This document shows positions 3,891 through 11,567 of a DNA stretch of 64,000 bases, piece by piece. Within the stretch, counting starts at the first letter, position 1; the number at the start of each line of letters is the position of its first letter. This stretch comes from a virus. Its lineage: Duplodnaviria > Caudoviricetes. The notes under the pieces were generated by a model. That model saw only the letters and a program-made list of their open reading frames with translations, was not told the DNA's origin and searched no databases. The position numbers were made by a program, and so were the translations under genes. The stretch spans positions 6,350-70,349 of IMG/VR virus record IMGVR_UViG_3300026549_000075; one strand, given 5' to 3'.

Positions 3891-3967
3891 GGGAAATTAG
3901 CTCAGCTGGTAGTAGCGCGCGGCTGTTAACCGCTAGGTCGTGGGTTCAAGTCCCTCATTTCCCGCCA
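3891..3967 (+). tRNA. tRNA-Asn(GTT)
   Basis: GGGAAAT/ATTTCCC acceptor stem, GCGG-CTGTTAA-CCGC anticodon arm, CCA. Confidence 0.92.
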
Positions 3968-5843: not shown

Positions 5844-6914
5844 CTGCTCAGCCGTCGGTATTAAATAAAAATTGACTTTATTGCTGATAAATATCCTGGC
5901 CTAAAAGTGTACACAAGCCACGGGAGGCGAGTAGTAAAGTCATATTCCACCATCAAGTACTGAATGTTATTCAGCAGTAATGAAATATCAATATAGGATA
6001 AAGTAGTGAGACTGAGTCAGTGGACTTAATGAAGCTTGGGAACTCCAGACAAAGTAGTCTGCAAGTAGAGGTTGAGCTCTACAAATATTCGCTTCACTTA
6101 ACGCGAACAAATAAACAAAAAGGGCATAAGTGAATTAACACTGGGTGACGATAGTCTGCCGGCGGATACGATAAATGTTGTTGCTATTCGATATGCAATT
6201 AAAATAAGGTCGAGTTTATAAGAGATGCCTAAGTTGCTCATCACGTAGAGGACGAAACACAAGGACAAGAAGTCGCCCAGCCCGAGGCAGAGTCATGTGT
6301 AATATCGGGTAAAGGCGTGATTAAGGTTAATACTATACCTCTAATTAGGCCATAATGTCTCCCACGAAAGTGGTTATAAGAATCCTAGTGAGAAAAGTAT
6401 TCGTTAGTTGGCTGACGTTATATTAGGTTTGGAAGTAAGAACCCGTGCCAGAAAAAACTTCAAGTCCACTATGACTATAAACTGGATGTAACAAGGCTAC
6501 AGGTTGGAGGTAAATAGCTTATCCTGTGGAGGAGACACTCCAGAAATATACGAAATAAAACCTCATAAAATATGCCGTGTACAGAACTTGGCTGTGCGAA
6601 ATCATAATATGTGTGATTAGGTGGATTCGCCAATTGGCACCATATTGATACTGGTCACCTAATGTATCAACACACAAAATAGTCATATGTACCGTGGACT
6701 ATAACTACGGGGTTCGGTTCACGATAAACCTTACACTACAACCACGGCAGTAATGAAATATCATTATATGATAAAGTAATGAGACTAATGGTACATCGTT
6801 GTAAAAATAGTAGCGGGTCCACCTTGTAAGTTCGTGAGGACCTAAAACAGGAACTTTCAAATCCTCAAGTGGTTGTTGTAGGGCGGTTTGATGCCACCTT
6901 AGAACGTAAAGGTT
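5800..6914 (+). ncRNA. Large (~1.1 kb) ORF-free, highly structured RNA region, possibly several RNAs
   Basis: Higher GC than its flanks. Long-range helices AGTGGACTT..GAAG/CTTCAAGTCCACT, CTGGGTGAC/GTCGCCCAG, TCTGCC/GGCAGA, CTACAACCAC/GTGGTTGTTGTAG; a CCAC-GAAA-GTGG tetraloop hairpin; a duplicated 40-nt module. Confidence 0.65.
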
Positions 6915-7092: not shown

Positions 7093-7371
7093 ATGAAGAC
7101 GATTAACCTATATCCAGAAGAAAGAGAAGCATTATATAAAGATTATGAACAAGGATACTTTATTAATACTTGTAATAATTGGTTATGTCCTTTTAATAAT
7201 GATGGTATTTGTGTAATTCAAAGATCAACTGATTGCATTGATGATCCTGAATTAGATAAAGACATCGATATTTTATATGAACTGTCCAGCAGTTTGGATG
7301 AAAATGAAGTTAATTTTGCTTTTGAAGCCTGGAGAGATTTAATTATTGAGAGGTACGGGTATAATGTCTAA
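7093..7371 (+). CDS. Hypothetical protein (Cys cluster CNNWLCPF..GIC..C)
   Basis: ORF track plus GAGGT RBS. Confidence 0.7.
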   Translation: MKTINLYPEEREALYKDYEQGYFINTCNNWLCPFNNDGICVIQRSTDCIDDPELDKDIDILYELSSSLDENEVNFAFEAWRDLIIERYGYNV

Positions 7372-7657
7372 ATTAAATATTATGAATTTTAAAGGTGATT
7401 CTAAGGATCTTGATATAGATATTTATGATAAAGGTATTTCATTTATAGGAGTAACTTCAATTACAGGAGATGAACAGATAAGAGTTATTCTTAATGGTGT
7501 AAGTAAGATATATGATGCTTCACTTGAAATAGGACCATCAAGATGTACTGATTACTATGAAGGTTTTTATGATGTGTATAATATTCTTACAGGTACAGAT
7601 ATTAGAAAACAATTCCTAAAAAGAAAATGTACTGATGGAGTTTATATAGATGAGTAA
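7364..7657 (+). CDS. Hypothetical protein
   Basis: ATG at 7364 with a GAGAGG RBS, overlapping the previous stop. Confidence 0.65.
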   Translation: MSKLNIMNFKGDSKDLDIDIYDKGISFIGVTSITGDEQIRVILNGVSKIYDASLEIGPSRCTDYYEGFYDVYNILTGTDIRKQFLKRKCTDGVYIDE

Positions 7658-7730: not shown

Positions 7731-8645
7731 ATGTTAAATTATAGTGATTTAAAATTAAAATTAATTAATACTGGATATTTTATTGATAATGATTATCTTG
7801 ATAAATATTTAAATTTAATCATTAAAAATAAAGACACTTTAAAAACTTTTGGATATGAAACTCATCATATATTACAGAGAAAATATTTTAAAATTATTAA
7901 TGCTGATATAGATGAAACAGAATCTAATAAAGTTAATTTACTTTATAAAGATCATATTTTAGCTCATTATTACTTATCATTATGTACAATTAATGATTTA
8001 AAAATATCAAATATACAATGTTTTTTAATGATGACATTTTATAAAAATAAGCTAACAGATGATGAGAAAGATATTTATAGGTCATTAGATGAATATCAAA
8101 CATTATATGAAAAATGAATAATGTGACTATCAGAAAATGGTCCTAAAAGATATTCTGATGATTGATCTGAGTATAGTAGAAATCTTATAAGTAAAATGTT
8201 TAAAGGTAAACCAAAATCCGATGAACATAAAAAGCATTTAAAAGAAGCAAGAGATTATCATTCAACTACTAAAGGTAAAAAATCAATATATAATATAAAA
8301 TTAAATAAAGTTAAATTTGTATTTCCTGATGAAATAAATAAATATTTAATGACAGGAGATTGAATTATTGGTGGTAAACCTTTAAGTGATGAACAGAAAA
8401 ATAAAATATCAAATAGTAATAGTAAATCACTAAAAGGTAAAAAATCAAAAGGTTTAAATAAAGGTTTAACTCCATGAAAAGTTAAGTGTATTGATACTGG
8501 AGAAATATTTGACAGTATAAAAGATGCGTCAAATTGAATGGTAAATAATGGTTATGGATCTGGTGGTCACATAAGAGAATGTTGTGATGGTAGTAGAGAA
8601 TCCACATTTAATTTACATTGAGAATGAGTTGATAAAAATGAATAA
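7731..8645 (+). CDS. Free-standing HNH homing endonuclease with NUMOD3/NUMOD1-type DNA-binding repeats (304 aa, code 4)
   Basis: ETHHILQRK..ESNKVNLLYKDHILAHYYL; GKPKSDEHKKHL; KCIDTGEIFDSIKDA..IRECC. Eight in-frame TGA, ends at TAA 8645. Confidence 0.8.
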
Positions 8646-8662
8646 GGAGGAAAATAAAGTCA

Positions 8663-10523
8663 ATGTCAAAAGATGATAAGTTTTGTCTTATGATAGTTGA
8701 AAGTCCCTAACAAGGTTCGTACTATTTCACAGTTCCTACCACCTAATATTAAGGTTAAGGCTTCAGTAGGTCATATAGCAAAAATAAAAGATAGTGGATT
8801 ATATAATCTTGGAATTGATGTCAAAGGAAATTTTGATATTGATTTTGTAATAGATGACAAGAAAAAGGAAACAGTCAAGGAACTTAAAGAATTAGTTTCA
8901 AGAGCTGATACAGTATATGTAGCAACTGATCCTGATAGAGAAGGAGAAGCAATAGCATATCATCTTAAGAATTTCCTTAATATTCCTGTAAAGAAGTTTA
9001 AAAGAGTTACGTACCATGAAGTAACAAAGAAAGCTGTACTTGAAGCTATTGATCATCCTGGTAAATTGGATGAAAACCTGGCTGATGCTGCTTTAGCAAG
9101 AGCTTCATTAGATAAAATAGTAGGTTATAGATTAAGTCCTATAGCAAGAAATAAAGTAGGATGTAGATCAGTTGGTAGATGTCAATCTCCAGCATTAAAA
9201 CTTATTGTTGAAAGAGAAGAGGAAATAGTTAACTTTAAGTCAAAAAAGTACTATGAAATATGGTTACCATTTACAAAAAATAAACTAGAATACAAAGCTC
9301 AATTTAAAGGACTTATTAAGGAAACAAAAAATAAACCTACAATTGAAGATAAAGAATTTGCTGAAAAAGTTGTATCAGATTGTAAAGGATATCCTTATAT
9401 AGTTTATGATATTCAAAGTAATGACAGAAAGGTATCACCTAAACCACCTTTTACAACTTCAACATTTCAACAGGAAGTATCAAGTAAATTAGGGTACTCA
9501 GTTAAAGCAGCTATGACTTATGCTCAACATTTATTTGAAGGTATCAATATAGGTGGACAGCATGTAGCACTAGTTACATATTTAAGAACTGATTCAACTG
9601 AAATGGATCCTGAATTTAAAGAAACATTAAAGACCTTTATTAAAGAAAATTATGGTAAGGAATATCTCTCAGGAGATACTAAAAAGGCAAAGAAATCAAA
9701 AAATGCACAAGATGGTCATGAATGTTTTAGAGTTATTGATTTAACAATGACTCCTGAAAGATTATCAAGTTATATAGCTGATCAACAGATGATTAAGGTA
9801 TATACATTAATCTATAACAGAACTGTTGCCTCGATGATGTCAGAAGCAATCATAACAGATGTAGATTTTATTATTAAGAATGGAGCATACAAGTTTGTAT
9901 ATTCTGAACACTCCATTAAGTTTCCAGGATTCTACAAAGTGTATGATTTAGAAGAAGATATTGTACAAGGTTTAGATATTTGTGTATTAGAAAAACTTGA
10001 TGCTAAAGAACTTGAATTAAAAGAAAAGAAGACATCTCCACCTAAAAGATATTCAGAAGCAACATTAGTTAAGAAGTTGGAAGATTTAGGTATAGGTAGA
10101 CCATCAACTTTTGCAACTATTATAGGTACACTACTTGATCCTACAAGAGGATATTGTGAAGAACAAGGTAAAGCATTAGCACCTACTGAAAAAGGAATTA
10201 AATTATCACACTTCCTTGATCAAGCATTCCCTGATATAGTTAATTATGATTATTCAGCTAAAATGGAAGAATCACTTGATAAAATATCTAAAGGTGATTT
10301 AGGTAGAGTTGATTATTTAAAAGACTTTTACTCTGACCTTGAAAATCAAATTAAAGGATCTAAAGGAGTGGAGGGAGAAAAACCACAGGCAGAAATGACC
10401 GATAAAGTATGTCCTCAATGCGGAAAGCCTTTGGTAAAAAGATATGGAAGATTTGGACCATTTCTAGCATGTTCAGGTTGGAAATTTGGTAGTAAAGGAT
10501 GTAATTATACTCAAAAACTTTAG
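8663..10523 (+). CDS. topA: DNA topoisomerase I (type IA); N-terminus joined by a +1 frameshift at CCC-TAA (8705-8710)
   Basis: TOPRIM motifs IVES-P-NK, ASVGHI, ATDPDREGEAIA, GRCQSPAL, catalytic TYLRTDS, GIGRPSTFA, C-terminal zinc ribbon. The RBS/ATG frame stops after IVESP. Confidence 0.9.
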
Positions 10524-10610
10524 TGTATATTATATTAAGAACTGGAATAACTAGCACTGGTAATGGTCGACCTACTAGTTATCAGTGCTAGAAAGGAAGG
10601 TTCTTTTTTA

Positions 10611-11567
10611 ATGGAACAAAATTATATAGGGTATATTTATATTACAACAAATCTTATTAATAACAAAAAGTATATAGGACAGCATAAATCAAAATCATTT
10701 GATTTAAATTATTTAGGTTCAGGTAAATTAATAGTTGAAGCAATAAAAAAGTATGGTAAGGATAATTTTAAAACTGAAGTAATTGAATGATGTACATCAG
10801 CTGAAGAGTTAAATAATAGAGAAATATATTGAATACAATATTATAATGCTGTAAATGATAATAATTATTATAACCTACATGATGGTGGTGGAAGTGGCTG
10901 AGATTATGTAAATAGATGCTGAGCTGATGGTGTATTTACAAGAAAACCTTTATCTGAAGAAGCTAAAGAACATATGAGACATCCTCATGTTGTTACTGAA
11001 AAGGGATTGAAAACATGAGGTAATAAAGGTAAACATCTAAAAGACGAGACAAAAAAGAAATTGAGTGATAAATTAAAAGTAGCTCGTGTTACATATGCTC
11101 CAATATGAAATAAAGGTATCCCTCAAACAGAAGAAGCTAAGCGAAAAATGCTTAAAACCAGAGAAGAAAATTGTATCGGTTGTGTAGCTGTGAGATGTGT
11201 TGAAACTGGTTATATATTTAAAAGTGAAAATGATGCATTAGAGTGACTTGGTGCTAAAGCAAACAAGATATCTGAATGTTTAAGTGGTAGTAGAGAAATG
11301 ACATATGGATATCATTGAGAAGTGGTTGATAATGTTGATCTAAACTCTATAGATTATTCGATATATGATAAACCAAGTATAAAATGAAATAGCATAAGAA
11401 ATAAAGTTTATTTGTGTATAACAACTAATAAAGAATATAAAAATTGAAATGAAATTAAAATGGATTTTAAATATACACGTAGTAATTGTGAAAAAATAAA
11501 AAGTTTATGTGATAATAATGATGAAAGTGAATATTTAGGATACAAATGAAGATATAAGATTGTATAA
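10611..11567 (+). CDS. Free-standing GIY-YIG homing endonuclease (Seg-like) with NUMOD repeats (318 aa, code 4)
   Basis: GYIYITTNLINNKKYIGQH..YLGSG..YGKDNF..EIYWI..YNLHDGG; 11 in-frame TGA; ends at TAA 11567. Confidence 0.85.

Follow-up and report, generated by a model that had tools for sequence, protein, structure and literature searches.

A probable +1 frameshift at a CCC_UAA_C site in the topoisomerase I gene of a rumen phage, adjacent to a homing endonuclease gene

In the mobA/gene 39/gene 60 region of bacteriophage T4 a free-standing HNH-type homing endonuclease gene lies beside a topoisomerase gene (Manning & Atkins, bioRxiv 10.1101/2022.08.31.505936; PMC5009743). Gene 60 carries a 50-nucleotide (nt) insert that is bypassed by ribosomes and protects against nicking by MobA, and loss of the endonuclease has been described as 'hit and run' (bioRxiv 10.1101/2022.08.31.505936). 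'Savior indels' with compensatory frameshifting have been defined as a class (PMC5009743). In bacteria and phages it is rare for an essential enzyme to be rescued by an obligatory +1 frameshift (prfB is the paradigm), and no earlier report of one in a topoisomerase I gene was found in the literature searched. Here we analyze a 64,000-nt stretch of viral DNA (hereafter the window; positions 6,350 to 70,349 of IMG/VR virus record IMGVR_UViG_3300026549_000075) that contains a topA gene predicted to encode a type IA topoisomerase with a Toprim domain, a Topoisom_bac core and a zinc ribbon. Synthesis of active TopA from this gene would require a +1 frameshift at the sequence CCC_UAA_C. The source record is 70 kb long, ∼35% complete and has a GC content of 31%; the stretch occurs in sequencing runs of gut metagenomes from cattle and other animals, and the virus is a rumen phage. 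It has no close cultured relatives: megablast gave no match, and tblastn identities did not exceed 39%.

The window resembles the T4 region in several respects. A free-standing HNH-type homing endonuclease gene adjoins the recoded site in a conserved gene and moves with it; a non-coding insert in conserved coding DNA places a stop right after the departure codon and would be undone in translation; and the unit spreads horizontally, some copies being devoid of the endonuclease gene. There are differences as well. In the window the gene product is a type IA enzyme instead of a type II subunit, and the gene is not split. Its insert is a single nucleotide with overlapping CCC to CCU re-pairing, whereas T4 ribosomes make a 50-nt hop between matched GGA codons, and the window lacks the take-off stem-loop, the Shine-Dalgarno sequence in the gap and a known nascent-peptide signal. 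MobA and the window endonuclease are likened by arrangement, their homology and the protection from cleavage being putative. The site follows the same principle as the mobA/gene 60 cassette and is not a member of it.

As to the shift itself, the initial annotation had named CCC followed by a stop codon as a documented +1 site in Listeria phage structural genes, in agreement with the literature: CCC_UGA is the +1 site in the tsh genes of phages PSA, A118 and A500, and its efficiency is 15% in Escherichia coli pheL even without selection for shifting (PMC5009743). Like these sites, the window has CCC in the P site followed by a stop, would use +1 re-pairing of tRNAPro, and has CCC as a rare codon in a low-GC genome. 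Unlike them, its stop is UAA and not UGA. Moreover, in the Listeria phages the shift adds a second, C-terminally extended structural protein, whereas in the window the unshifted 15-mer would be useless and the shifted product the sole functional one. In this latter respect the site resembles CUU_UGA_C of prfB, the gene for release factor 2 (RF2), which is likewise an early site in its gene, with a stop and then C at the A site, +1 re-pairing in the P site and a shift that is obligatory for function. prfB, however, is stimulated by a strong Shine-Dalgarno sequence located 3 nt upstream, is conserved throughout the bacteria and follows a clear feedback logic, none of which was seen in the window. 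Finally, as in the G-run mutants of herpes simplex thymidine kinase, an indel whose benefit lies in the DNA itself would be tolerated because some ribosomes restore the frame (PMC5009743); in the window the advantage, escape from an endonuclease, is putative, and the site is a shifty stop instead of a long homopolymer.

The interrupted topA gene and the extra C

The topA gene, like the two flanking endonuclease genes, the near-repeats and the upstream 103-aa gene described below, is on the plus strand. A Shine-Dalgarno sequence, AAGGAGG (8644-8650), is located 12 nt before the ATG at 8663, which opens a frame-0 segment (8663-8710) of 15 codons (MSKDDKFCLMIVESP) ending with CCC (8705-8707) and TAA (8708-8710). 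In the +1 frame, reading starts with CCT at 8706 (PNKVRTI...) and remains open to 10523, giving a body of 605 codons plus a stop. The two frames overlap by only four codons (V-E-S-P), from the +1-frame TAG at 8694 to the TAA at 8708, and hence a productive shift must occur within these. When CCCT is read as one step, the result is a 619-amino-acid (aa) protein that is colinear, without a gap, with the solved TopA structure PDB 6ozw from residue 6 onwards, the junction IVESP|NKVRTI being aligned to lvIVESPaKakTI. The acidic Glu of the TOPRIM motif of type IA topoisomerases, (I/V)VESPxK, is present only after the +1 shift. The alternative start in the body frame, TTG 8697, is directly preceded by TGA-TAG in that frame, lacks a Shine-Dalgarno sequence and would give a product, MKVPNK..., without this Glu. 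The initial annotation had drawn the same picture (ribosome-binding site (RBS), ATG, CCC and TAA, a slip onto CCT that restores IVESPNK, and a TTG-started open reading frame (ORF) devoid of both Glu and RBS), and each of its coordinates and each of these elements holds. The body (8706-10523) matches the Pfam families Toprim (1.4e-15, from profile position 8), Topoisom_bac (6.2e-105) and Zn_ribbon_Top1 (2.9e-08, a C4 zinc ribbon), and its translation contains ATDPDREGE, with the DxD motif DPDREGE, and LVTYLRTDS of the catalytic Tyr region.

The extra C is a true and widespread allele. Frameshift relatives were found through a protein search, which returned five clusters of near-identical TopA called from the false start MKVPNK.... 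The identical sequence GTTGAAAGTCCCTAAC is present in six other independent ENA or Logan assemblies (L008 to L013), and assembled contigs, not raw reads, of runs X1, X2 and X3 cross positions 8705-8710 without differences or gaps at depths of 220, 53 and 10, respectively. Plain alleles exist too: L002, L022 and L023 read ...GTT GAA AGT CCT AAY AAG..., and L022 (CCT AAC) equals the frameshift allele minus exactly one C. An assembly gap of Ns interrupts locus L020 (P0047), which is uninformative. The initial annotation had considered that a miscounted C homopolymer might hide a true sequence AGTCCTAAC, and that reads with two C would speak against the site. Such two-C sequences do occur in runs X3 and X4, but they carry several linked differences in the preceding 30 nt; because of these, the two-C contigs come from a different, co-resident strain with an L002-type 5′ end and do not refute the three-C form. 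As this form is found in seven assemblies from differing studies and assemblers at depths of up to 220, and as a run of three C is not error-prone in Illumina data, the probability of a sequencing or assembly artefact is negligible.

The topA body is under strong purifying selection while carrying the shift. The most informative comparison is that between the window and L011, which are sisters in a tree based on the body only and both carry the endonuclease gene together with the shift. Between the two, identity is 96.5% for the endonuclease genes (dS 0.147) and, within the first 550 codons, 96.6% for the topA bodies (dS 0.161); the similar dS values indicate that the locus diverged as a whole since the common ancestor, which most parsimoniously already had the shift. 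Over these 550 codons there are no stops and no indels, and 50 synonymous stand against six non-synonymous changes (dN/dS 0.029; p ∼1e-27 versus neutrality). All four distinct frameshift bodies are intact (603-606 codons), with pairwise dN/dS values of 0.07-0.15.

The composition of the site points in the same direction. CCC is the rarest Pro codon of the phage (8/557, 1.4%) and does not occur among the 27 Pro codons of the topA body, and C follows no more than 2 of 42 true stops. A plain allele allows 5,527 distinct one-base insertions, and 15 of these (0.27%) create a CCC_stop that yields the wild-type protein after a +1 slip, which makes a chance origin of the site unlikely. The P-site CCC can re-pair to the +1 codon CCU with UAA in the A site, followed by C. 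The initial annotation had suggested asking whether relatives keep CCC-TAA, and several close ones do: the site is identical in seven assemblies on at least three backgrounds. Together, the population and selection evidence make the need for a +1 shift in topA well supported at the sequence level.

Decoding at the shift site and alternative readings

We propose that ribosomes correct the frame at CCC_UAA_C (8705-8711) by +1 frameshifting and so produce active TopA, a reading to which we assign a probability of about two in three. Translation would begin at ATG 8663 and bring the rare codon CCC into the P site, with UAA followed by C, a weak termination context, in the A site. A C-terminal proline before the stop would slow termination and cause a pause, during which the peptidyl-tRNAPro, most likely the phage-encoded UGG isoacceptor, would move its pairing from CCC onto CCU, which overlaps it. 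The next codon read would be AAC (Asn), giving ...IVESPNKVRTI... with no amino acid altered, and ribosomes that terminate would yield a useless 15-residue peptide. Genes for tRNAPro(UGG) and tRNAAsn(GUU) are encoded by the phage (L021:5880-5956 and window positions 3891-3967, respectively); if the shift occurs as proposed, these tRNAs would come to occupy the P site (on CCU) and the A site (on AAC). The slip is what we infer from these features, and as no stimulatory Shine-Dalgarno sequence or RNA structure was found (see below), its efficiency would probably lie between a few percent and some tens of percent.

Other ways of reading through the interruption were considered and rejected. Quadruplet decoding by the phage tRNAPro(UGG) is ruled out, as its anticodon loop has the normal 7 nt (UUUGGGA). 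Recoding of TAA as a sense codon is ruled out as well, since frame 0 beyond the TAA is not TopA and meets further stops. A run of only three C does not suffice for transcriptional slippage; CCC also stands in the contigs from RNA libraries, such contigs being no proof of transcription.

Several observations weigh against the frameshift reading. Within 10 nt upstream of the site there is no Shine-Dalgarno-like sequence, and no stimulatory structure was found, the folds of 8692-8735 and 8708-8790 being no better than shuffles (z -0.5 to +0.3). The absence of a stimulator and the ordinary anticodon loop of tRNAPro(UGG) indicate that the efficiency of the shift may be modest. Stimulatory elements are not obligatory at CCC_stop sites. 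In addition, the site is conserved only inside one young, near-identical 5′ block; the closest relatives include alleles without it, and deeper relatives have other inserts or none. As this block moves by recombination, the purifying signal across backgrounds may partly predate its arrival, a concern that the comparison of the window with L011 reduces and does not remove. A hairpin at 8660-8701 (z -2.0) pairs the region of the topA start codon with codons 5-13; it may limit initiation, and since the shifting ribosome would enclose it, it is not placed as a stimulator.

Two rival readings assume that full-length TopA is not made from the frameshift allele. According to one of them the insertion inactivated a dispensable topA, and the null allele persists by linkage to the endonuclease cassette or to a recombining 5′ block. 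The youth and mobility of the block, the occurrence of plain alleles in the same samples and the lack of a stimulator would fit this. The four intact bodies, and the dN/dS of 0.029 between two lineages with endonuclease gene and shift whose endonuclease genes diverged equally, would not be expected of a null allele; nor would an indel at one of the 0.27% self-correcting positions or the maintenance of the RBS, the ATG and the 15 N-terminal codons. The frameshift alleles, moreover, exceed the plain ones in runs X3 and X4. We therefore regard a spreading null allele as unlikely. The other reading has translation start at TTG 8697, giving a TopA without its first 14 residues and the TOPRIM Glu that would be selected for a non-catalytic or altered role. 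The body frame opens at the TTG, 11 nt ahead of the stop, which would permit termination-reinitiation, and gene callers picked this start in all frameshift alleles; it has, however, no Shine-Dalgarno sequence. In type IA enzymes the Glu of IVESP is required for DNA cleavage and religation. The strong constraint on the DxD motif, the region around the catalytic Tyr and the remainder of the fold is sensible only for an active enzyme, and diverged relatives with a 6-nt insert at the same place (see below) have no start codon for ∼70 codons past their stop, so that reinitiation is no general solution. A functional truncated product is accordingly very improbable.

The remaining alternative, put forward in the initial annotation, accepts the shift and gives it a regulatory purpose: slow termination at UAA would raise shifting, and TopA dosage would be tied to release-factor activity during a switch of TGA from stop to sense, as in prfB, where the stop-in-A-site shift responds to the release-factor level (PMC5009743). 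The phage does appear to read TGA as sense, since doing so doubles the length covered by long ORFs, and the topA body uses only TGG for its two Trp codons and has no in-frame TGA, while the flanking endonuclease genes are TGA-rich (8 and 11 codons). A tRNA with anticodon UCA is encoded upstream of the window (L021:4611-4706); it is 96 nt long, has a long variable arm and is called 'SeC' by ARAGORN. It is presumably a TGA suppressor, its Ser/Sec-like build leaving several inserted amino acids possible. Plain alleles in the same phage group, however, do without the site, which argues against a regulatory design that is conserved; both RF1 and RF2 recognize UAA; and the distribution of the site tracks the mobile 5′ block and not the phage lineage. 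Neither a release-factor gene nor a second topA is present in the 70-kb record, which, being ∼35% complete, does not imply absence from the whole phage. On balance a sensor function is distinctly unlikely.

The mobile 5′ block and its endonuclease gene

All frameshift alleles have a common 5′ block composed of a new RBS, a new ATG and 15 codons, joined in some copies by the endonuclease gene; the segment from RBS to ATG is present in every frameshift allele and in none of the plain ones. The block shows 0-3 differences per 100 nt among frameshift alleles, against differences of 5-10% in the gene bodies. In nucleotide trees based on the body only, the frameshift alleles are not monophyletic: L013 groups with plain alleles, L008 with L024, and the window with L011. 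These three backgrounds indicate that the 5′ block was moved by recombination. A protein tree uniting all frameshift alleles was set aside, as it is partly an artefact of the shared false N-terminus and the body-only trees disagree with it.

In the window, the 5′ block is preceded by a gene for a 103-aa protein (7346-7657), whose stop overlaps the topA start (ATGA) in the plain alleles L002, L022 and L023. The gene for the free-standing HNH-type homing endonuclease (7731-8645; 304 aa) follows. It contains eight in-frame TGA codons, matches phrog_655 (1.4e-16) and phrog_12434 (HNH), has one weak match, in a Vibrio phage, and ends 62 nt before the shift site. It is flanked by a 9-nt near-repeat, (G/A)ATGA(G/A)TAA, the left copy of which (GATGAGTAA) is at 7649-7657 and the right copy (AATGAATAA), including the stop codon of the endonuclease gene, at 8637-8645. 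A second free-standing homing endonuclease gene, of the GIY-YIG type (10563-11567; 334 aa, 11 in-frame TGA codons), lies just downstream of topA; neither L002 nor L008 has it at this position. The in-frame TGA codons of both endonuclease genes make these selfish genes translatable only once TGA is a sense codon.

Endonuclease gene and shift occur together in the window, L011 and L012. L008, L009, L010 and L013 lack the endonuclease gene, the missing piece being precisely what lies between the two near-repeat copies, L008 and L013 joining repeat to repeat, and from their sequences these copies look like products of repeat-to-repeat loss. In L008 and L013 the old topA start is left as a six-codon mini-ORF (ATG AGT AAA GGA GGA AAA TAA), in the 30-nt stretch before the RBS. 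This mini-ORF runs through the new topA Shine-Dalgarno sequence. The plain alleles have neither the endonuclease gene, which is absent from L002, nor the new RBS.

Homologous endonuclease genes adjoin topA elsewhere, too. One lies directly upstream of topA in L015 (32% identity, E 5e-24), whose topA has a 6-nt insert with a stop at the same codon as the shift site (see below). Another likewise lies directly upstream of topA in L024 (1546-2532; also in L025 and L026) and encodes a 328-aa variant with 48% identity over the HNH domain and a different C-terminal domain; its ORF overlaps the first 11 topA codons and ends inside the N-K codons after IVESP. The topA gene of L024 is uninterrupted, with its first ∼40 residues replaced by diverged sequence. 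The position of these homologues in L015 and L024 indicates that the topA 5′ end is a predicted homing site for this endonuclease family.

Overall, the data favor a mobile-element origin of the shift site. Our interpretation includes a second layer, in which the insertion would belong to the mobile 5′ block and the indel may disrupt the endonuclease target in the conserved DNA encoding IVESPNK, making it a 'savior indel'. We hold this layer with somewhat less than even confidence, and the idea that the indel serves immunity to the endonuclease is equally tentative. Two findings weigh against immunity: L024 bears an endonuclease gene and yet has an uninterrupted topA, so that immunity needs no indel, and four of the seven recovered frameshift loci are devoid of the endonuclease gene.

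Other inserts in topA genes and their implications

Inserts were also found in diverged topA genes. In four of them, from separate lineages and with products 50-79% identical to the plain TopA of L002, an in-frame 6-nt insert directly follows the same Pro codon, so that the reading is IVESP-stop-L-NKVKTI. The sequence is CCG TAA CTT in L003 (2990-3001) and L016 (∼1583-1594), CCT TAG CTT in L015 (∼2400-2412) and CCT TAA CTT in L018 (1717-1728, minus strand). It is in L003 that no start codon occurs for ∼70 codons past the insert stop. The hexamer pairs with K-V-K codon sequence further downstream: the partner is AAGTTA in L003, where the match is perfect, and in L015, where one pair is G-U, and L018 has the stem CUUAA/UUAAG; the resulting hairpin is better than shuffles in three of the four genes (z -2.5 in L003, -3.5 in L015 and -2.45 in L018), and L016 has no such fold. 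For this class both readthrough and a +6 hop are possible; there is no matched landing codon, CUU being only near-cognate for tRNAPro(UGG). A 6-nt pattern match in L052 was due to chance. The raised nucleotide identity around the insert between L003 and L015 is confounded by conservation of the motif and was not taken as evidence.

In two further genes a 4-nt insert follows the second Asp of the DxD motif: GAC|TGAC|AGA in L014 (∼1520-1540), a tandem duplication, and GAT|CGAC|CGT in L019 (∼380-400), whose protein cluster comprises 107 sequences. Gene callers report each of these genes as two. Both inserts have the form GAY-N-GAC, so that tRNAAsp could re-pair 4 nt further on in an Asp-to-Asp hop; an out-of-frame read in the A site is the alternative. 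At the IVESP site of the window and of the 6-nt relatives and at the DxD site of L014, the departure codon is followed by a stop and this in turn by C, the corresponding triplet in L019 being CGA. Pattern scans of IMG/VR for more 4-nt DxD inserts returned 25 matches, all due to chance and outside TOPRIM genes. It is conceivable, though in our view less likely than not, that phage topA genes host a family of horizontally moving recoding inserts of 1, 4 and 6 nt in their TOPRIM motifs that confers immunity against HNH endonucleases homing to the 5′ end.

If so, the T4 gene 60/MobA principle would also apply to a second class of enzymes and to inserts as small as they can be. Natural in-frame stop-hops were unknown as of PMC5009743; the 6-nt form, if truly decoded, would be the first of these or a case of hairpin-linked readthrough. 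The results also bear on annotation, because topA genes with a false TTG start or with split calls are recorded as truncated and the recoding is overlooked. If ribosomes do correct the site in the window, a one-base indel at a shifty stop would allow a mobile element to change the DNA of a catalytic motif while the protein remains unchanged, and gene 60 of T4 would then represent one end of a range of insert sizes instead of a unique oddity. The presence together, in rumen samples, of plain alleles, frameshift alleles and alleles with both endonuclease gene and frameshift offers a natural system in which the cost and gain of such an indel can be followed.

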